Below are positions 55,015 to 64,000 of a stretch of DNA of 64,000 nt, piece by piece (position 1 is the stretch's first letter; every line of letters starts with the position of its first letter). Both the position numbers and the translations under genes were made by a program. Source of the DNA: a virus; the IMG/VR virus record IMGVR_UViG_3300032334_001937, positions 1 through 64,000 of that record. One strand, written 5' to 3'. Below the pieces are notes generated by a model, which did not search any database, was not told where the DNA came from, and was given only the letters and a program-made list of their open reading frames with translations.

Positions 55015-55520
55015 TAGATCTCCGTAAACTCAATATTTATATCTACATAATCTGATAAAGATGTTCTCTTTGATAAAGTTTTTGCAAATGTTGTGATAAA
55101 AGCACTGTATGTTCTATATCCAGTTGCATCAGTTATTGTTGCTTCTGTCTGTGCAGTCTTAAAGTTATGCCCTGATTCATTTGGGACTGAACCAGCAGCA
55201 GGATCTGAAGCAAGCTTTGACTCAACAACCTTTAAATATATCGGCACACCAGCATTGGCATTATAAAATGATTCCATCCAGGCAGCACCGTAGTTACCAT
55301 CAGCTGTTTCTGATGATCTTGTTGGCAAGAATGTCCAGGCTGTTGATATTCTATGCTTTTTAGCAATAACATATTTTCTCATAGTACCGTTAGCCATACG
55401 TGTTGTTTGCTCAATTAAATCTACATCTATTTGTATTGGTTGTCTATTATGGTCAGTAAGCTTATACCAGGTTGACCCATTAAGGGAAACCTGTATACCC
55501 GCTTGAATTTTATATGCCAT
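55014..55520 (-). CDS. Distal tail-like protein
   Basis: Directly after the TMP; RMANGTMRKY motif. Confidence 0.75.
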   Translation of the reverse strand: MAYKIQAGIQVSLNGSTWYKLTDHNRQPIQIDVDLIEQTTRMANGTMRKYVIAKKHRISTAWTFLPTRSSETADGNYGAAWMESFYNANAGVPIYLKVVESKLASDPAAGSVPNESGHNFKTAQTEATITDATGYRTYSAFITTFAKTLSKRTSLSDYVDINIEFTEI

Positions 55521-58500
55521 TACATCATCACCTTATTTGTTTTGTTATTTTGTCTTTGTACCCTATCTAATCTTACCATAATCTCATCTGCAATTTCTTT
55601 CTTATTGAGGTCTGTTCCATTAATAATAAAGTGGTTTGTCATTCCTCCATCATTATAAGTTTTATTTTGATCTGCTGGAATAATACGTTCACCCTTGTGA
55701 ACCATTGCAAGAGTATCAGCAGGTACATAATCTGTTCCAACATCATATGAAGGAATATTAAATTTAACCATTCCACCTTTAGCAAATCCAAATTTTGATT
55801 TTGCTGCATCAATTATTTTTCCAAAATTGGGTCCAGAGTAACCTATTGTTCCTTTTGAAGTTATTTCTCCTCCGCCCTGAATAATTGTATTAAATTTTTC
55901 TGGATTAAATTCAGGATAAACAGTTTTATATTGATCTGGCAAGAAAAGCTCTGCTCTTCTATTTTTAGCCATATTTGTAGCGTTTGTATTTGGTGCTAAT
56001 GGTTCATATGTTCCAAATCCTATTGGCATAAATTTTATACCCTTTGCAAATTTAGAAAGATATGATGCTGTTGCTTTTGCTCTATTTAATGAAAGCAAGT
56101 CATTATCTACTCCACCACGTGAATCTGCATGTCCTTGAACAACTATAGACTTTATGTTATTATCAATTAATTGAGAAGCTAGTTTTTGAAGTTCTAGCCT
56201 TTGTTTTTTATTTAAATCATATGAATTAGTACTAAAGTTAGATCTTATTGGCGGAACTTTAATTTTAATTATTTCTTTATGCGCTTCTTGCCAGGCAGCT
56301 GCTGGACCCATCATTGTTCCGCCTTGATAGGTAGGTTTTACTTCACCTTGGAAATTTTTGGAATAATTAGTGACTTGTCCACCTCTTGCAAACTTAGGTT
56401 TATTAATATTTTGGAATGCATTTGGTTGATTCCATCTTGGTCCAGCTGTTCCAAAATGAGGTATATGTGGTGAAGGCAATGTTCTTTTTGCTTCAAATAC
56501 ATACTCATCTAATAACTTAGAAGCACTTGGTCCAACCCACTGTTGACTTGCTCCTTCTCCAATAAAATGACCACCTTCTGCTGGTATTTTAATTGCTAAA
56601 GGATTAATTGCTTTTAAAACAAATTCTGTATAAGCAGCAACATACTGTTCTTTAGCTGTTGCATCTTTGAAGTATCCACCAAGACCAAGGTCCATTAAGT
56701 TTTTTATTCCACGGACATCTTTGCCTAATATAACTTTTGCTATAGCACCAGCCTGTCCACCTCCTGTACCTCCTTGTGTTGCTATGACTTTAGCCCAGTC
56801 TAAATTGTCAGTAAATGATTTATGCATATCTGGTATCCAGGATTGACCTACATTTAACCCCTTATCAAATTCTTTAAATGGAGCTGCTTCTGGTGAATCA
56901 TATCTTGGTTCTGGTTTTCCAGATGCCTTAATTAAATCTACTGCATTTTCTTTCCATCTTGAGGTAAAATGTGACCAAGGAGCATCTTGGGTCATAGAGT
57001 TATATCCGAATTTATCCATCCAAGCTTTTCCATTTTGCAAAGCCTTATTTGGAACTGTTTTATGTCCTACAATATCAGCCATGTCCTTAAGGCTAAGACC
57101 TCTATAGACAACTTGATCTTCTCCCATTGGTTTTCTAGTTAATAATGAATTAATTACTCCCCAATCATCTTTTTGAGCATACATTGGTTTTTGAGTATAT
57201 AAATCAAGTGCATTAATTCCACCAGGTGGGGTGTCTGTTTTTCTTGATAATTTTAATAGCTTTAGAGCATCAGCTATTGTTGTTTTTGAATTTTCTATCA
57301 TAGATGGAGCATCTTCTGGTTTTGCCCAGGTGTGGTCCTTAAAGAATTTACCACTTTCAAGATCTTTTATTTTGGTTCTATGATCTGCTATCATTTGCTG
57401 ATATTTTTTAATTGATGAAACTGTATCTTCAGAAAGCTTTGATGTTTTAACGGCTTGTGCTTCTGCAAATGCTTTATTTTGCTGTATAACTCTTTGCATT
57501 ACATAACTATTACCCATTGATGGACGATACTGAGGAAGCTTAGGAACAAAGTTATCATCCATAGCAGCATGGACAGTAACTTTAGGAACAATGGCTGATT
57601 TTGTACCCATTCCTAATTTACCTGCAAGTCCTACAGCAGGCAATACTCCAAGCACATCTGCAGCAACGCCTAAGCCTTTATGTCCAAATATTTCAGGGCT
57701 TGTATTATTTTTTAAATTAAATGCTGATGTATAGCCAGATAGACCTTGTGCAGCTAGTAACGCAATTCTATCTTTTTCTGTTTGAGAAACTGCTGACTTA
57801 TAAGAAGAAACTCTTGGGTCAATTTTTGATGCACCCATACCCATCATTCCAGATAGGTATGAGGAAAACATATTTACTGGGTTAAATCTACTAAAGAAGT
57901 TTCCGTTTTTCTTTCCAACTGGTCCACCTGTAGCAAACTTCTTTGCATTTAGTTGATCAAAGAAACCTACGCCATATTTATCAACAGCACTTGCATTAAC
58001 AACATATTCTTTATTAGATAGCATTGCTGGAATAGAATCAGATGTTGTACTTCCTGGTCCAGAAATAAAACCGCCATCTGCTTTTTTAGTTGTATTTCTA
58101 TTGACTGGCTTTCCCTTTACACTTAATGTTTGAGGATTCCATTGCTGAATCACGCCAGCACCGTCTACAGCATACTGCTTTCCATTCCATTCAAATACAT
58201 AAACAGAGTCACCAGTACTTGTTCTTGTTACTCCACTTCGTTGCTGCAATGCCTTATCAGCTGCAGCGCCAACAGTCTTACCGTCTATAGCCCGTGTAGG
58301 TGTCATAGATCCAGCACCAGACACAACTACTACTGGAAGAGGATTACTTTTATCAAAATTAAACATTCTTGATATGCGATCAAGTGCACCCTTAATGTCT
58401 ATTGTTGGGGTTGCAACTGGAGCTGGTCCAGCAGATGCAATGATGTTATCTTTTTTATCTTTATCTGCCTGTAGTTTATCAACTTCATCTTGCTTTGCAG

Positions 58501-61500
58501 CAATTTGCTTTTCTAGAGCTGTTAGTGCATTTTGATTATTATAGTCTACTGTGTTATTAGCTTGTTGTTGTCTTAGCTGTTCTGCTAAAACATAATTTCC
58601 ATGGATCTTTGCATCTAAAATTTCTGCATCAAGGCTTGCCTGTTTTTGCAAGTAATCTTGCTGATTCTTTAACTCTGCTGTTGCATCTTGCTGAGCCTGC
58701 AATTTTTTCTGAAGAACTTTAAGCTCTGCCTTTGCAATTTCTAAAGCACTCTTGCTATTTGCCTTTTCTGCTGCCTTTAGATTAGCAACCTTTGCTGCAT
58801 AGTCTGCTCTGTCTTTTGCATTTTGTTTTTGTATGTCAGCATTTGTTTTTTCAAGGTCTTTTTTAACTGCATCTAAAATCTGCTTTTGTCTTGCTTCTTC
58901 AGTTTGACCTGGAGTCATAGGAACACTTTGTGCTGCCTTCAAGAATATCTGAGCCTCAGCAAAGCTTGCACCCAATGCTCTAAGTTTTGTTAGCTGTGCA
59001 CCAAGGGCTATGTCTGATTTATTTGCTGCAATAATTAAATACTGATATGCCTGAGCTGTTCCGCCAAGAGCCTTAGATAATGCGTTGGCCATGCGGATTG
59101 CATCTTCATAAGATGTTTTTGAATCTAGAATTCTGCTTGCAACTAATAGCGCTGCATCCGCTACTCTCTTTTGCTGCTTTGTCAAACCATCATATGCAAC
59201 ATCAAGGTTTGATAATGGTCTAGCAGCATTTCTTAATTTAGATATCCATGTACCAGTTGCAGTAGTTGAATTCTTTGTGCTTGTTGTAACAGAATCTATT
59301 GCCTTCTTTAAGTACTCAGTCTTTCCAGCATATGTAAGAAGAGTTGTAATTAAGTCTTTTACCTTTGATGGATCCATTCCATTTGCTACCTGTGCAGCAA
59401 CAAACTGTCTTACTGTTCCAACAACACTGCTCTCACTGCTCATTCCCTTTAGGCTGTCAGCTACAAGCTTTAGAGGATTATCACTCTTTAACTTATTAAT
59501 TGCATTAACACGTTTTTGAAGTTCACTTAATTCTTTATTTGTATCTTTGACTGATGTTGCAAATACGTGAATCTTTGCAGTCTGATCAAGCATTGTTCCA
59601 CCGAACATGCTAATTACATCAGCACTTGCTGTATAAGTTGCTTTTACAGTTGCTTCATGCTTTCTATGCATTTCCACTAATGATGTTATTCCAGCAGTAA
59701 CAAGTCCTATTGCAGCTCCAGCTGCAGCTCCCCATACACCAAACATTGCTCCCATAGCTGCCATATTTGCTGTTGATTGAGCTAATGCTTTTCCTGTAAA
59801 CTCTGGCAAAGCACTAAGAGCCATGCTTCCAACCATAAGTCCAGCACCAGCTGCCATGCCTCTGCCACTTAAACCAAATCTAGATTTTCCAGCATCTTTT
59901 GTTTTGTTTCCATTTTCTTTTCCAGCAGCTAATTTTTCTTGTTCAGTTAATGCAGCAACAATTGGAAGTGACATTGCATTCTCTGGCATGCTTGGTCCAA
60001 TTTGAGCTGGCCCCTGTGTTCTTGTTGCTACTCTTCTTTTCTTTAGTGCCTCTTTAGCTCCAACATCTACTGACTGTACAGCTTCTACACCAATCTTTTT
60101 ACCTGCTGCTGTTACAATCTTTTCATCAGCAATCATGCCTTCTGCAAGACCACCATCAATATACTTTCCAGTACGTTTTGATGCTTGAGAGTTTGAAGCA
60201 GTTTCTGCACCCTGTGCAACTCCCTTAGTAGCTCTTCTTCCAGTTTCTATTGCAACCTTTTCTGCAAATTTTATTAAACGATCATGTGCATTTGCAATAA
60301 TTGCTTTAGTTCTTACTTCAATTTCTTTTACACTTGCTGTAATTCCTGGCATGATGTGTGCTGCTTGAGCTCCAGTATATTCTTTTAGTGAATTTTCCTG
60401 TGCTCTTTTTCTTGCACGATTTAAAGCTATTCGTTGTGAAAGATATGACTTGCGCTCTTCTGGCATGTCTTTTGGTGGTAATGTTCCTAGCTCAGGCAAA
60501 ACATCTGGCAAAGTGTTTGGAACATTTTTCATTTGAAATTCGGGCTTAGTACCAGTTTCACTTGATTTACTTGGTCTTTCACCTTTTCTAAAAGCAAAAG
60601 GATTTAATCTTACTGCAAGAGCTTGTGCTTTTTCTCTAAAATCAATATAAGATTTTCCTAAGCTTGTTCTTGGAACAGAAGATCCAGTACCGCTTCCAAC
60701 CATTGCAACAGTTCTTATATCATCTATTGCGCTATTAATTGCTGCAGCTGCTTGTTTACCGCCAATATTAATTGTTTCAGCTTCTTTTCTCATTGCTGGA
60801 ACAACAATATTTTCAAGGTCTAAATCTGTTACTAAAGTTTTTCCTGATTTTTCTAATGCACTTATAGAAGACTCTATAAGTTTTTTGCCTGCAACTTCAA
60901 AATCTTTATGTAACGTTGGATCCTCAACACTTACTCCCATTGAGTCTGCCATTACTGCAAGAAGTGGAGATGCTGCTGCACCACCAGACTGACGAAGTGA
61001 TGCAATAACATCCTGCATGCTTGCTCCAGTTGAACTTCCTAGCTGTTGGTTAATCCAATCTTGTAAATATATGGTTGCATTTCTATATGCTTTAATCTCA
61101 ATGTCTTCAAGTGGTCCTGTTGTCCCGCCCTTTAGTTTTGTTCCACGACCTGTTGGGAATCCAGGTAGGTTATCTGCAACTAAAGAATTAATTAGATCTG
61201 GATGTTTTGAAACAACTGCTGCTGGGATGATTGCTTCACCATTAGAAATTCTTGCAATGATAGAATCTGAAGTTCCAGTTCCTGGGCCAGTCACAACTCC
61301 TGGTGTTCCAGTTGCAAACTTCTTGAGGGCTGGAGCCTTCATCATTCCAGGATTGCTCATAGCAAAAGTTTTTGCTGCAACTATTGCTCTTTCATATGCC
61401 ACTCTTAATTGATTGACTGCCCCTGCTTCTACAGTAAATTGCTGAGTAAGGGTTGCATGTGCCTGCTCAAGTGAGTGTGCTGCTGCTGCAGCATCAAGCT

Positions 61501-63310
61501 GTTCGCTTGTTAAATATTGTGTTTGTTCTCCAAGATTTTGGCTTTGGCCAGTAAGTCTTTGATATCCTGTTCTTAATGTAAGGAAAAGTTTCATTATGTT
61601 TGCAACACCGTTTGCAAGCAAACCAAATGTCATCAAAAGAATTGGACCAAGACCACCAATAACTCCAGCGGTAATTGCTACAAACTTTTTAGTGCCATCA
61701 GATAAGTTATTAAACTTATCAAGTACTTTAGTAACAAAATCAATAACTGGAGTAAATGCTTTCATGAACACTTCTCCTACTGGAGCAAGAGATGCTTTAA
61801 GCTTTGCAACTGCTGCTTGAAATTTAATTAATGCAGATGCTGATGTTACACCTAATTCTTTTTCGGTAAGGCTTGCAAGATTCCCTGCTGACTGACCTGC
61901 TAAATCAAGAACTCTTGATGCCTGATTTCCTGACTGAATAACATTCTTCATCAATGTTGAAATACGTGCAAACTGGAATTTACCAAACATTGTTTCAATT
62001 GCTCTTGCTCTAGCAAGTGGATCTAATCTATCAAGTTCTTTAGCAAACTCAACAACTGTTGCCTTAAGATTACCCTTGTTTTTATTTACAATTCCATTTA
62101 TATTAATTCCCATACTTGCAAGCATTTCATTTGCTTTTTTGCTTGGGTTAATTAAAGAGGCTAAGCCAGACTTTAGTGCGTTAGCACCTTCTGATGCATT
62201 AACTCCTCCTTCTTTCATTGCAGTAAGGAAGAAAGCTAAGTCTTTTACATCTCCACCAAGTGACTGAATTACTGGAGCTACCTTTGGAATAGCTGTTGTA
62301 ATATCATCAAGAGATGTTACAGTTTGGTTTTCTACTGCGTTAAGGAAGTCAATTGTTGTAGCAAGCTCTGTTGAAGAAATCTTAAAAGCATTTTGAAGAG
62401 ATATAGTTGTTTCAAGTGCTTGCTGTTGTTCAATTTGTCCAAGGATAGCAAGCTTAGTTGCTGCATCTGTTTGTGCAATTAAGTCTGCATTCTTAAAACC
62501 TGCTGCAGCTGCTTGAGAAGCAAGCTCTACTGTCTTAGATACTTCAACGCCATACTTTGTATACCCGTCAGCAAGTGCTCTGATATTCTTTAATGCAGCT
62601 TCTGTTTCTACTTGATTAGTACCAAGATCGCCATATACTTTTCTAAATCTAATTACTTCTGTTTCTAATGTCTTAAAAGACTTGGCTGCTGCCTGACCAA
62701 ATGCAGCAAGTGGTAGAGTAAAACCAACCATAAGCTGACGACCAGCCCACTGAGTATTTTTACCAAAGTTAAGAAGACTTGTTGATCCTTGTTTTATTAA
62801 CTGATTAAAGATTGCTTGCTTTTGAGCTGCTATCTGAGTTTGTGTACTCAGATTATTCATGTCAAGAGTTAATGGTCTGATAGCAATTGCCTTCATTGCT
62901 CCAGTTGCATCACGACCCATCTTGATGTATTGGGTCTGTAATGTCTTTACACGTTCTTCGGCTACCTTGCCAATTGTGTCAAATTCACTCTTAAATGCTT
63001 TACCAAATGTTTTTGTTGCTGCCCCAGCATATCTGAAGTACTCACGCATTGAGAGCTTATTGCCCTCAAGCGATGTAGTAAATGATTCTGCTGTTGTTTT
63101 TACTGTGCGGAGTTCTGCAGAGAAAGCACCAATAGCATTTACACTATTGACAAAATTTCTCTGCAGATCCCTCTGAGCAAGTGCTGCTGCTTCACTACTT
63201 TTAGCAACAGATGAGTGAAACTGAGATATCTGACGTTGTAGGGCCTTTAGTTGGTCCAATGCTGCAGACGTATCAATATTTACGCCAATATTAGCATTTA
63301 CATCAGACAT
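55520..63310 (-). CDS. Tape measure protein (2596 aa) with embedded ADP-ribosyltransferase-like and OmpA-like domains
   Basis: TP901-type TMP core (ASEGANALKSGL), TM segments, two GPGxxTSDSI modules, YRG / SFT / xKE ART motifs, GHAD...N..LS..RA...NRR OmpA motif. Confidence 0.92.
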   Translation of the reverse strand: MSDVNANIGVNIDTSAALDQLKALQRQISQFHSSVAKSSEAAALAQRDLQRNFVNSVNAIGAFSAELRTVKTTAESFTTSLEGNKLSMREYFRYAGAATKTFGKAFKSEFDTIGKVAEERVKTLQTQYIKMGRDATGAMKAIAIRPLTLDMNNLSTQTQIAAQKQAIFNQLIKQGSTSLLNFGKNTQWAGRQLMVGFTLPLAAFGQAAAKSFKTLETEVIRFRKVYGDLGTNQVETEAALKNIRALADGYTKYGVEVSKTVELASQAAAAGFKNADLIAQTDAATKLAILGQIEQQQALETTISLQNAFKISSTELATTIDFLNAVENQTVTSLDDITTAIPKVAPVIQSLGGDVKDLAFFLTAMKEGGVNASEGANALKSGLASLINPSKKANEMLASMGININGIVNKNKGNLKATVVEFAKELDRLDPLARARAIETMFGKFQFARISTLMKNVIQSGNQASRVLDLAGQSAGNLASLTEKELGVTSASALIKFQAAVAKLKASLAPVGEVFMKAFTPVIDFVTKVLDKFNNLSDGTKKFVAITAGVIGGLGPILLMTFGLLANGVANIMKLFLTLRTGYQRLTGQSQNLGEQTQYLTSEQLDAAAAAHSLEQAHATLTQQFTVEAGAVNQLRVAYERAIVAAKTFAMSNPGMMKAPALKKFATGTPGVVTGPGTGTSDSIIARISNGEAIIPAAVVSKHPDLINSLVADNLPGFPTGRGTKLKGGTTGPLEDIEIKAYRNATIYLQDWINQQLGSSTGASMQDVIASLRQSGGAAASPLLAVMADSMGVSVEDPTLHKDFEVAGKKLIESSISALEKSGKTLVTDLDLENIVVPAMRKEAETINIGGKQAAAAINSAIDDIRTVAMVGSGTGSSVPRTSLGKSYIDFREKAQALAVRLNPFAFRKGERPSKSSETGTKPEFQMKNVPNTLPDVLPELGTLPPKDMPEERKSYLSQRIALNRARKRAQENSLKEYTGAQAAHIMPGITASVKEIEVRTKAIIANAHDRLIKFAEKVAIETGRRATKGVAQGAETASNSQASKRTGKYIDGGLAEGMIADEKIVTAAGKKIGVEAVQSVDVGAKEALKKRRVATRTQGPAQIGPSMPENAMSLPIVAALTEQEKLAAGKENGNKTKDAGKSRFGLSGRGMAAGAGLMVGSMALSALPEFTGKALAQSTANMAAMGAMFGVWGAAAGAAIGLVTAGITSLVEMHRKHEATVKATYTASADVISMFGGTMLDQTAKIHVFATSVKDTNKELSELQKRVNAINKLKSDNPLKLVADSLKGMSSESSVVGTVRQFVAAQVANGMDPSKVKDLITTLLTYAGKTEYLKKAIDSVTTSTKNSTTATGTWISKLRNAARPLSNLDVAYDGLTKQQKRVADAALLVASRILDSKTSYEDAIRMANALSKALGGTAQAYQYLIIAANKSDIALGAQLTKLRALGASFAEAQIFLKAAQSVPMTPGQTEEARQKQILDAVKKDLEKTNADIQKQNAKDRADYAAKVANLKAAEKANSKSALEIAKAELKVLQKKLQAQQDATAELKNQQDYLQKQASLDAEILDAKIHGNYVLAEQLRQQQANNTVDYNNQNALTALEKQIAAKQDEVDKLQADKDKKDNIIASAGPAPVATPTIDIKGALDRISRMFNFDKSNPLPVVVVSGAGSMTPTRAIDGKTVGAAADKALQQRSGVTRTSTGDSVYVFEWNGKQYAVDGAGVIQQWNPQTLSVKGKPVNRNTTKKADGGFISGPGSTTSDSIPAMLSNKEYVVNASAVDKYGVGFFDQLNAKKFATGGPVGKKNGNFFSRFNPVNMFSSYLSGMMGMGASKIDPRVSSYKSAVSQTEKDRIALLAAQGLSGYTSAFNLKNNTSPEIFGHKGLGVAADVLGVLPAVGLAGKLGMGTKSAIVPKVTVHAAMDDNFVPKLPQYRPSMGNSYVMQRVIQQNKAFAEAQAVKTSKLSEDTVSSIKKYQQMIADHRTKIKDLESGKFFKDHTWAKPEDAPSMIENSKTTIADALKLLKLSRKTDTPPGGINALDLYTQKPMYAQKDDWGVINSLLTRKPMGEDQVVYRGLSLKDMADIVGHKTVPNKALQNGKAWMDKFGYNSMTQDAPWSHFTSRWKENAVDLIKASGKPEPRYDSPEAAPFKEFDKGLNVGQSWIPDMHKSFTDNLDWAKVIATQGGTGGGQAGAIAKVILGKDVRGIKNLMDLGLGGYFKDATAKEQYVAAYTEFVLKAINPLAIKIPAEGGHFIGEGASQQWVGPSASKLLDEYVFEAKRTLPSPHIPHFGTAGPRWNQPNAFQNINKPKFARGGQVTNYSKNFQGEVKPTYQGGTMMGPAAAWQEAHKEIIKIKVPPIRSNFSTNSYDLNKKQRLELQKLASQLIDNNIKSIVVQGHADSRGGVDNDLLSLNRAKATASYLSKFAKGIKFMPIGFGTYEPLAPNTNATNMAKNRRAELFLPDQYKTVYPEFNPEKFNTIIQGGGEITSKGTIGYSGPNFGKIIDAAKSKFGFAKGGMVKFNIPSYDVGTDYVPADTLAMVHKGERIIPADQNKTYNDGGMTNHFIINGTDLNKKEIADEIMVRLDRVQRQNNKTNKVMM

Positions 63311-63332: not shown

Positions 63333-63653
63333 TTATTCAGCTGGTAAAACGTTGACCAGTGAACCAAGCTCAATGCCTGATGCTGCTTCAACAATTTTAT
63401 AAACAGTTGGAAGGTCAAGAATTTCTTCCAATGTTGCCAAATCTTTTGCCAGTTCTGGCTTGTACTGCTCCATAGCAATTTGAACACACTCAATCAAAAT
63501 ATTCATTGATTTTTCGTTGTTGTCTGCGACAGTAGCTATACCCTCAAACTTCTTCATAAATGGGCGGAGCAAAGAAATTTTTAGAGGCTTAACCTCAATC
63601 TTTGTACCGTCCATAAGAATAAGTTCATTACCCTCATGTACTTTCGTTGCCAT
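63333..63653 (-). CDS. Tail assembly chaperone
   Basis: Immediately upstream of the TMP; AGGAGG SD; own TGCTATAAT. Confidence 0.7.
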   Translation of the reverse strand: MATKVHEGNELILMDGTKIEVKPLKISLLRPFMKKFEGIATVADNNEKSMNILIECVQIAMEQYKPELAKDLATLEEILDLPTVYKIVEAASGIELGSLVNVLPAE

Positions 63654-63684: not shown

Positions 63685-64000
63685 TTATAGCATAGCGGAG
63701 GGGTCTCTAGCGTCTTCATAATCAAGACCAAGACCAATACCAAACCCTGCTTTCTGTGCATTTACTCCTTGTAAAGCAAGAACATCATTACTATCAGAAG
63801 TTGCCCCACCACTAAATACTCTAGCCTTCATATCTTCCCATTGCTTTTGACCTTGCTCTTGTTCACCTTCAAGATCAACCCCTTGCATTGCTGCTAAAAA
63901 TTTCTTTTCTTCATAGTCTAATTCTCTTTTACTTGCTAGGGTTGCCAATAACTCTGGCATAGATAAAGATAATTCTAGTTCATGATAATCTTTCCATATA
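63685..64000 (-). CDS. Tail assembly chaperone-like protein, 5' truncated by the window edge
   Basis: Frame open to the edge (IWKDYHELELSLSMPELL...). Confidence 0.6.
   Translation of the reverse strand, partial: IWKDYHELELSLSMPELLATLASKRELDYEEKKFLAAMQGVDLEGEQEQGQKQWEDMKARVFSGGATSDSNDVLALQGVNAQKAGFGIGLGLDYEDARDPSAML

Follow-up and report, generated by a model that had tools for sequence, protein, structure and literature searches.

How does a protein that measures the length of a phage tail come to hold a toxin-type fold and a wall-binding domain, and what is the role of the motifs that stand between them? This question is raised by the tape measure protein (TMP) of an uncultured siphophage (IMG/VR virus record IMGVR_UViG_3300032334_001937), whose genome of 112,019 bp (37% G+C) was analyzed over its first 64 kb, positions 1 to 64,000, hereafter referred to as the window. 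The TMP gene, located from the list of open reading frames (ORFs) and their translation, lies at 55520..63310 on the minus strand, which is also the strand of all TMP features described below, and encodes 2,596 amino acids (aa) plus the stop codon. From comparison with its relatives, we read this lake siphophage protein as a conserved core, three joint modules and a set of exchangeable cassettes, and give this reading a probability of roughly 0.6. The original prediction, drawn from the sequence letters, had placed an effector polyprotein delimited by FAxGG motifs at 55520-61320; that interval lies within the TMP gene and covers aa 665-2596 only, the gene starting at 63310.

The joint module and the exchange of cassettes at its edges

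Short motifs recur along the single TMP ORF at the residues first proposed (FATGT at aa 665, FPTGR at 718, ADGG at 1744, FATGG at 1792, FARGG at 2307, FAKGG at 2509, and YDVGT at 2522), and they exceed the expectation from shuffled sequences. The pattern [FYW]AxGG occurs three times, against a mean of 0.135 in 20,000 shuffles (P=0.0005), and AxGG with two further residues behind it, both from a mainly hydrophobic set, is seen four times, against 0.11 expected, a count reached by 0 of 20,000 shuffles. Rather than a free-standing linker, FAxGG is the first strand of a module of ~50 aa, with the consensus [KR]K[FY]AxGG-x-GPGxGxSDxIPAxLSxGExVxxA...YG...LN, of which the TMP holds three copies at aa 665-718, 1744-1793, and 2509-2553 (hidden Markov model domain E 2e-19, 1e-20, and 3e-10, respectively). 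Module 1 (aa 665-723; KKFATGT...SDSIIARISNGEAIIPA...NLPGFPTGRG) spans 61142..61318, module 2 (aa 1744-1796, with a trailing KKFATGG) spans 57923..58081, and module 3 (aa 2509-2553; FAKGGMVKFNIPSYDVGTDYVPADTLAMVHKGERIIPA), a diverged copy, spans 55652..55786. The two GPGxxTSDSI modules of the original prediction are therefore joined by a third, and three of its motifs lose their separate standing: FPTGR closes module 1 at its C-terminal end, ADGG opens module 2, and YDVGT, which corresponds to GPGxxTSD, forms the diverged core of module 3. FATGG at 1792 and FARGG at 2307 are first strands that stand alone, without a following core, the latter (aa 2307-2311, 56378..56392) lying between a cassette with an ADP-ribosyltransferase (ART) fold and an OmpA-like cassette. 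None of the module copies of the TMP matches any Pfam family.

Relatives were drawn by the hundreds from IMG/VR and JGI metagenomes, with 160 loci kept and complete TMPs of ~1,670-3,450 aa, and their comparison strongly supports, at the level of sequence, the exchange of cassettes at module edges. Across the 80 first-found relatives, aa 1-721 are 62-81% identical to the TMP under study (the query) and identity drops steeply right after module 1, while aa 1797-2505 are present in none of them. The relative P0032 is 98% identical to the query over aa 1-721 and 94% over aa 722-1743; with breakpoints placed at the protein level, this identity stops after LNAKKFATGG (1796) and returns at GFAKGG (2507), remaining at 82% from there, and the slot between FATGG and FAKGG holds 382 aa that are unrelated save for a 23-aa island, versus 717 aa in the query. 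The same pattern is seen in DNA, where L054 and L109 match at 99.5% identity as far as TMP aa 717, share no similarity over aa 718-1083 (1.1 kb), and are again 97.6% identical over 8.9 kb. Furthermore, DNA similarity of L016 to the window returns at aa 2509, and L001, L002, and L015 each keep a DNA island at aa 1751-1797 (71-75% identity) amid dissimilar DNA.

Block edges follow the same rule. Over 139 pairs, 101 of the 143 internal edges of high-identity blocks (at least 85%) fall at most 10 aa from a module end, against 5.8 expected, and 119 of 143 fall at most 25 aa from one, against ~14 expected, counts that are descriptive rather than a formal test because the pairs compared are phylogenetically related and not independent. 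Cassettes also change place and neighbor: in P0019 their order is reversed (module, OmpA, FAKGG, ART), in P0003, P0004, P0005, and P0006 the ART domain ends in ...HIPH with [FY][AS]xGG directly next, and in P0012 it ends in ...FRPL, followed by LAKGG. Since conserved islands stand in divergent DNA and homology breaks at the module edges, the modules act as recombination anchors for swapping, adding, and reordering cassettes. Relatives thus keep the scaffold, differ in their inserts and show breakpoints at the motifs, and the part of the original prediction that took the motifs for recombination junctions, and proposed an alignment of related TMPs as its check, is borne out. DNA microhomology at the FAxGG sites was considered and set aside, since the common TTTGCNANAGGTGGA is required by the peptide and by codon usage and is uninformative either way. 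A conserved carrier with exchanged variable domains, a feature by which polymorphic toxins are recognized (PMC3482391), is found in P0032 versus the query, in P0019, and in L054 versus L109, although a toxin-type fold is present in just one cargo type among those seen. A neighboring immunity gene, the other mark of such toxins, may be dispensable for a lytic phage that makes its TMP late in infection.

The module itself reaches far beyond this lineage, and its sequence matches mark it as an old, widespread TMP element. Each of the 80 first-found relatives that has this region on its contig carries it at ~665-718, and a tblastn search with one module copy returned 763 phage records, almost all matched in annotated TMP genes, among them Gordonia, Mycobacterium, Pseudomonas, Arthrobacter, Burkholderia, and Vibrio phages. 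When a profile of 52 module copies was compared with the sequences of solved structures, it matched Douge gp16 twice (residues 963-1014 and 1411-1467; E 2.8e-31), JBD30 gp46 at residues 1017-1054 (E 7.5e-10), and phage Chi weakly. The module is unresolved in all published maps, those of JBD30 and Douge included (PMC11445458, PMC13033339), and the JBD30 authors predict the region as a 'hook' at residues 1022-1066 (PMC11445458). Lambda gpH appears to carry the module at residues 729-769 (hhalign against the module profile, E 8.7e-5, probability 60%): FATGG (733-737) precedes GTGGKYEPAGIVHRGEFVFTKEATSRIG, the core is GEFV, and YATGG trails at 778. The Pfam family for the lambda C-terminus, PF09718, covers gpH 627-701 and ends short of it. 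In our set of loci, this lambda stretch (L163:2327-2494, gpH aa 729-784) falls just after the glycine-rich region in which gpH is cut to gpH*.

Among complete relatives, 93 have two modules and 12 have three, the latter with extra sequence between the last two. The basal two-module design, with copies at ~665-718 and at ~50-100 aa from the C-terminus, has no cargo slot in any of the 93, for which reason the main role of the module is probably structural or maturational, and FAxGG, first taken for a dedicated cargo delimiter, is better described as the first strand of a widespread module. A trailing FAxGG follows 16 of 31 internal modules and 1 of 96 terminal ones. In L073 (L073:10346-11680, TMP aa 669-1099), two copies of the module 1 type, at aa 669-718 and 1048-1099, enclose an insert of 329 aa, an example of cassette gain by module duplication.

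Possible cleavage of the tape measure protein

Whether the modules are also cleavage sites, as the original prediction proposed, is judged here by analogy with two phages. Only T5 pb2 and lambda gpH are known as cut TMPs, each with one cut (PMC12617516). The mapped cut of T5 pb2 falls between R1127 and AEGGMM (PMC10038345), in a context where SFVPR precedes the cut and AEGGMMYPGVSYQMGEHGTEVVTP follows it, i.e., AxGG plus two hydrophobic residues, at 92 aa from the C-terminus; module 3 of the query starts 88 aa from its own. Lambda gpH is cut into gpH* of ~79 kDa and gpHC of ~14 kDa, from 'the glycine-rich region' (PMC12617516), and a hypothetical cut between F733 and A734 would yield 79.8 and 12.5 kDa, close to the reported ~14-kDa fragment. 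On these parallels, cleavage of the query at its last module has a little less than an even chance, and cleavage at every AxGG, which would make the TMP a true polyprotein, appears doubtful. The broadest form of the proposal is that the AxGG module is the siphophage TMP processing signal behind gpH* and pb2*, perhaps self-catalyzing through its invariant Asp and Glu, and that its multiplication here would yield a polyprotein from which exchangeable effectors (ART and wall anchor) are released into the host as infection begins; we regard this, too, as improbable.

The alternative that survives best, although we consider it rather unlikely, is that no polyprotein processing takes place. The TMP would be uncut, or cut once near the C-terminus, its modules would be seats or hooks in the hub or tube, and its cassettes would work in cis, with the OmpA-like domain as a wall anchor and the ART tethered to the ejected conduit. 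The occurrence of the module in the 93 relatives without a cargo slot, as well as in phages with ordinary TMPs, supports this view, since the primary role of the module cannot then be cargo release, and the hook predicted by the JBD30 authors (PMC11445458), the non-significant match to T5 and the restriction of known TMP cleavage to T5 and lambda, one cut each (PMC12617516), agree with it. Nevertheless, the sole mapped TMP cut falls exactly before AxGG plus two hydrophobic residues, and the lambda cut region lies just upstream of its FATGG. Moreover, lone FAxGG motifs without a core (1792 and 2307) separate cassettes, which a purely structural seat does not explain, and it would be awkward for an ART that acts in the cytoplasm and a domain that binds the wall to share a single uncut chain.

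Several points weigh against modules that divide the TMP into delivered, cleaved cassettes. The likeness to T5 is limited to a 7-residue motif, and the module profile against the pb2 C-terminus gives an hhalign E of 0.35, which is not significant. The cut site of lambda gpH is unmapped and the catalyst of either cut is unknown (PMC12617516), and the JBD30 authors put the module region (hook 1022-1066) upstream of the predicted cut, not downstream (PMC11445458). In addition, cassette 1, which follows module 1, has no module at its right-hand edge. Finally, three folded copies of domains of ~25-56 kDa do not fit a tail lumen of ~4 nm, and for this reason the domains would be stored unfolded or in a tip complex, as proposed for T5 pb2C.

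The cassettes and the possible activity of the ART-fold domain

Three non-ruler inserts had been recognized from the sequence alone, and each withstood closer analysis. The ART cassette (aa 1930-2280; 56471..57523), delimited by AlphaFold2, Foldseek, and VIA-align, consists of N-terminal helices (aa 1930-2022) and an ART fold of the R-S-E clade at aa ~2023-2280. AlphaFold2 on aa 1930-2306 reached a predicted local distance difference test score (pLDDT) of 79.6 and a predicted template modelling score of 0.72. Foldseek with this model returned Certhrax, VIP2, C2-I, iota toxin Ia, CDTa, and C3 (E 6e-5 to 1e-3, probability 1.0), along with the ART-like domain of anthrax lethal factor, which heads the list, and VIA-align gave Z 11-12.4 over 135-160 residues (root-mean-square deviation 2.3-3.6 A) to VIP2, ExoT, iota toxin Ia, C3, and Plx2a. 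When 1.84 billion proteins were searched exhaustively for relatives of aa 1797-2306, only 31 came to light, of which the full-length ones are nearly all giant TMPs and the shorter matches appear to be gene fragments; the same search splits this segment into a pre-cargo piece (aa 1797-1926) and the domain proper.

On strand 1, the aromatic-Arg motif is Y2069-R2070, and every aligned homologue that extends over the site has [FY]R[GA]LS. In a set of 20 homologues (28-73% identity), conservation reaches at least 90% at R2070 and S2165, and E2221 never varies. The candidate for the S-T-S motif is K-S2165-F-T2167, whose S-x-T pattern is kept in at least 90% and departs from STS proper. At the E/Q-x-E site of the ARTT loop, the first Glu or Gln is missing, with A, D, Y, or N two positions before the invariant E2221, and an insert of ~95 residues separates the Arg and Ser motifs. 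No Pfam ART model matches the TMP or the ART-domain homologues scanned. Because a single Glu is conserved (A-K-E) in place of an E/Q-x-E pair, the activity or target class of the ART is uncertain, a point against the main reading.

These features also leave room for a second alternative, which we judge clearly unlikely, in which the domain has no transferase activity and is instead a nicotinamide adenine dinucleotide (NAD) glycohydrolase or, like domain 2 of anthrax lethal factor, a degenerate fold that now serves for binding. The position of lethal factor at the top of the Foldseek list, the single Glu conserved at the ARTT (ADP-ribosylating turn-turn) position, the ~95-residue insert between Arg and Ser, and the lack of a matching Pfam ART model are in keeping with it, whereas the conservation of R2070, S2165, and E2221 across the 20 homologues is what would be expected of a working NAD site, and the Z scores of 11-12.4 are to active toxins. 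A last alternative, that the sharp identity drops described above reflect different rates of divergence between a constrained core and free linkers, as modules under strong purifying selection, fast-evolving variable regions, and the many only moderately related pairs might suggest, is hardly tenable and was rejected on the DNA of L054 and L109, which passes from 99.5% identity to no detectable similarity over 1.1 kb and back to 97.6%, just as the query and P0032 pass from 94-98% identity to unrelated slots of different length (717 versus 382 aa) and back to 82%, while cassette order in P0019 is reversed.

Ahead of the ART cassette lies a pre-cargo segment (aa 1797-1926; 57533..57922), defined by homology and hydropathy and including a hydrophobic, Gly-zipper-like helix at aa 1878-1900. 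It is 59-69% identical in TMPs with or without the ART domain (P0007, P0014, P0016-18, P0020, and P0021), and may have a role in membrane translocation. The 23-aa island LPQYRPSMGNSYVMQRVIQQNKA (aa 1928-1950; window 57461-57529) is the only part of the cargo slot in common with the unrelated cargo of P0032 and forms the first helix of the cargo domain; it may be a common adaptor. When the replacement cargo of P0032 was compared with the ART profile by hhalign, a common N-terminal helix was all that could be aligned (E 9e-5, 38 columns).

The OmpA-like peptidoglycan-binding domain (aa ~2343-2457; 55940..56284) is recognized by PF00691 at aa 2359-2451 (E 2e-11, 44.5 bits versus a gathering score of 27.2), and the NCBIfam models YiaD, YfiB, Pal, TssL, and MotB also match it. 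Its translation shows GHADSRG and NDLLSLNRAKA (NxxLSxxRA), which may be the family signatures of the Asp and Arg that contact the peptide stem. The original prediction spoke of several injected effectors; the OmpA-like domain is more likely a wall anchor. Pfam scans of relatives (9 cargo segments, 10 ART homologues, and 15 further TMPs or cargo segments) returned only PhageMin_Tail and one OmpA.

Cassette 1 (aa ~738-998; 60317..61099) is an alpha/beta domain predicted by AlphaFold2 with a 17-sequence alignment. The model, with pLDDT of 81-97 over aa ~738-858 (model residues 21-140) and of 48-94 onward to ~998, indicates an independently folding domain, in agreement with the non-ruler domain anticipated after aa 718. 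For aa 719-1130, the folded segment, Foldseek found no convincing fold match (best E 0.42), which does not prove a new fold, and a wide VIA-align search gave Z of at most 5.5, to long helices only. The stretch that corresponds to this cassette, aa 718-1083, is the one wholly exchanged between L054 and L109. Many otherwise different cassettes that follow module 1 start with a shared G-x-G-[FY]-R-N-A-T-x-[FY]-L, in the query KAYRNATIYL (aa ~738-787; window 60950-61100).

Genomic context, proposed delivery and known systems

The 2,596-aa ORF is a genuine siphophage TMP by its sequence matches, as first proposed. PF10145 (PhageMin_Tail) matches aa 252-443 (E 3e-26, 92.8 bits versus a cut-off of 33.2), TIGR01760 matches with E 5.5e-31 (107.9 bits versus 28.8), and nine TMP PHROGs match the N-terminal ~600-800 residues, phrog_10030 with E 4e-96. 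The gene order is that of siphophages, i.e., portal, head protease, capsid protein, adaptor, a tube-like protein bearing an immunoglobulin domain, two chaperone-like ORFs, and the TMP, followed downstream by a 168-aa ORF and a minor tail protein of 1,461 aa. The two ORFs upstream of the TMP, at 63333-63653 (minus strand, 106 aa) and 63685-64000 (minus strand, extending to genome position 64407, 240 aa), both match phrog_10504, the longer one with an added second domain, phrog_10474; they appear to be a shorter and a longer tail chaperone, each with a gene of its own instead of production through a programmed frameshift. A gene for the large subunit of ribonucleotide reductase (phrog_367, E 4e-143) adjoins the portal at genome positions 73162-75195 (L161:10162-12195), outside the window.

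Four further TMP regions were delimited. The conserved N-terminal core (aa 1-664; 61319..63310), defined by identity to relatives, contains a hydrophobic hairpin at aa 542-575 found by hydropathy scan; it is 62-81% identical in 80 IMG/VR relatives and co-conserved with the upstream tail genes. A Gly/Ala-rich hydrophobic hairpin at aa ~1145-1214 (59669..59878; mean Kyte-Doolittle value >1.5 over aa 1183-1214) is a candidate membrane-inserting channel segment, by analogy with the hydrophobic stretch of T5 pb2 (PMC10038345). The stretch at aa ~1440-1620 (58451..58993), with 58-75% A/E/K/L/Q/R/M and almost no Gly or Pro, is by its composition probably a coiled-coil ruler. At the other end, a C-terminal plug (aa 2554-2596; 55523..55651), which ends in NNKTNKVMM, is conserved among relatives (47-65% in L016/17, L074, and L077, 82% in P0032, and weaker in L015, 35%) and would be seated in the baseplate hub, to judge from T5, JBD30, and Douge (PMC10038345, PMC11445458, PMC13033339).

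The phage is an uncultured siphophage of ~112 kb, of a lineage common in lake metagenomes. Its nearest cultured phages are Streptomyces siphophages of ~130 kb, whose capsid protein is 43% identical and whose TMPs are 29-31% identical over aa 1-575, suggesting that the hosts of the lineage are possibly actinobacteria. In the phage collection, a near-identity DNA search returned only patches of ~60 bases, in Streptomyces phage TMPs, and a protein search matched the TMP over residues 1-575 only. The lineage recurs across lake metagenomes (L081-L160), in many cases as contigs of 70-108 kb, which suggests a widespread group of freshwater phages.

If the parallels with T5, lambda, JBD30, and Douge hold, the C-terminal end of the TMP would sit in the tail tip and exit first. 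Given these cassettes, the tail probably carries ready-made proteins into the host. The OmpA-like domain, first to arrive at the wall, would anchor the ejected conduit there by binding peptidoglycan, and the Gly/Ala-rich hairpin (aa 1145-1214) would help to form the channel. The ART, with its hydrophobic segment in front, would act on a host target soon after infection starts, in the manner of phage T4 Alt, which comes from the head. A weaker step of this scheme is that the TMP would be cut during maturation at the AxGG of each module start, like T5 pb2 and probably lambda gpH, and that the virion would then contain no less than the final 87 residues, and possibly every cassette, as a polypeptide of its own.

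The original prediction regarded this architecture as a candidate for a new system, a description that needs narrowing, as enzyme-bearing TMPs are already known (T5 pb2, TMPs with muralytic domains, and P23-45 gp96), and so are virion ARTs. In the literature, we found no paper on an ART or OmpA-like domain inside a TMP, nor on cassette exchange at this joint. T5 pb2, which yields pb2* and pb2C (Linares et al. 2023, PMC10038345), resembles the query in its hydrophobic channel-forming stretch and in an enzyme-bearing C-terminal piece that lies in the hub and is expelled first, but it is cut only once, carries a single small cargo (92 aa, with a metallopeptidase motif), lacks ART, OmpA, and repeated joints, and shares no detectable homology beyond the 7-residue motif. 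Lambda gpH has what appears to be the same joint module with a cut nearby, and its gpHC stays bound to the tip (PMC12617516); unlike the query, it has one module, no cargo cassette, and no known enzyme. JBD30 gp46 (PDB 8RK3) and Douge gp16 (PDB 8ZDO) are alike in their sequence-level module matches and in a TMP C-terminus that forms a trimer in the hub (PMC11445458, PMC13033339), whereas no enzymatic cargo is described between or after their modules. In Thermus phage P23-45, gp96 is a TMP fused to the virion RNA polymerase, which shows that an enzyme at work in the cytoplasm can enter the host as part of a TMP (Chaban et al. 2024, PMC10770324). However, its enzyme is N-terminal and of another class, and no cassette exchange or repeated joints are described.

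T4 Alt is a virion-borne phage ART. The MuF-VIP2 fusions of actinobacteriophages are also virion-borne ARTs (PMC7302621), and in both, ART domains of the R-S-E or VIP2 type are packaged and delivered with the DNA, as would be the ART of the query. MuF polymorphic toxins likewise place variable C-terminal toxin domains on a conserved carrier (PMC12226406). In T4 Alt and MuF, by contrast, the carrier is a head protein, whereas the ART of the query is internal to the tail ruler, flanked by joints, and placed beside a wall-binding domain. The polyvalent proteins of phages and conjugative elements are reportedly very large, multi-domain proteins with several enzymatic domains, thought to be delivered together with DNA; they are not TMPs and are not organized around this joint module.

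The joint module has no Pfam family despite its presence in hundreds of sequenced phages, and a model for it would improve TMP annotation. It also links the architecture described here to lambda gpH and T5 pb2, and offers a concrete, testable candidate for a cleavage signal in well-studied phages. If the cassettes are delivered, the tail ruler would double as an exchangeable payload carrier. This would represent a second route by which ready-made enzymes enter the host, beside head-packaged T4 Alt and MuF fusions, and a new place to look for host-takeover and counter-defense activities.

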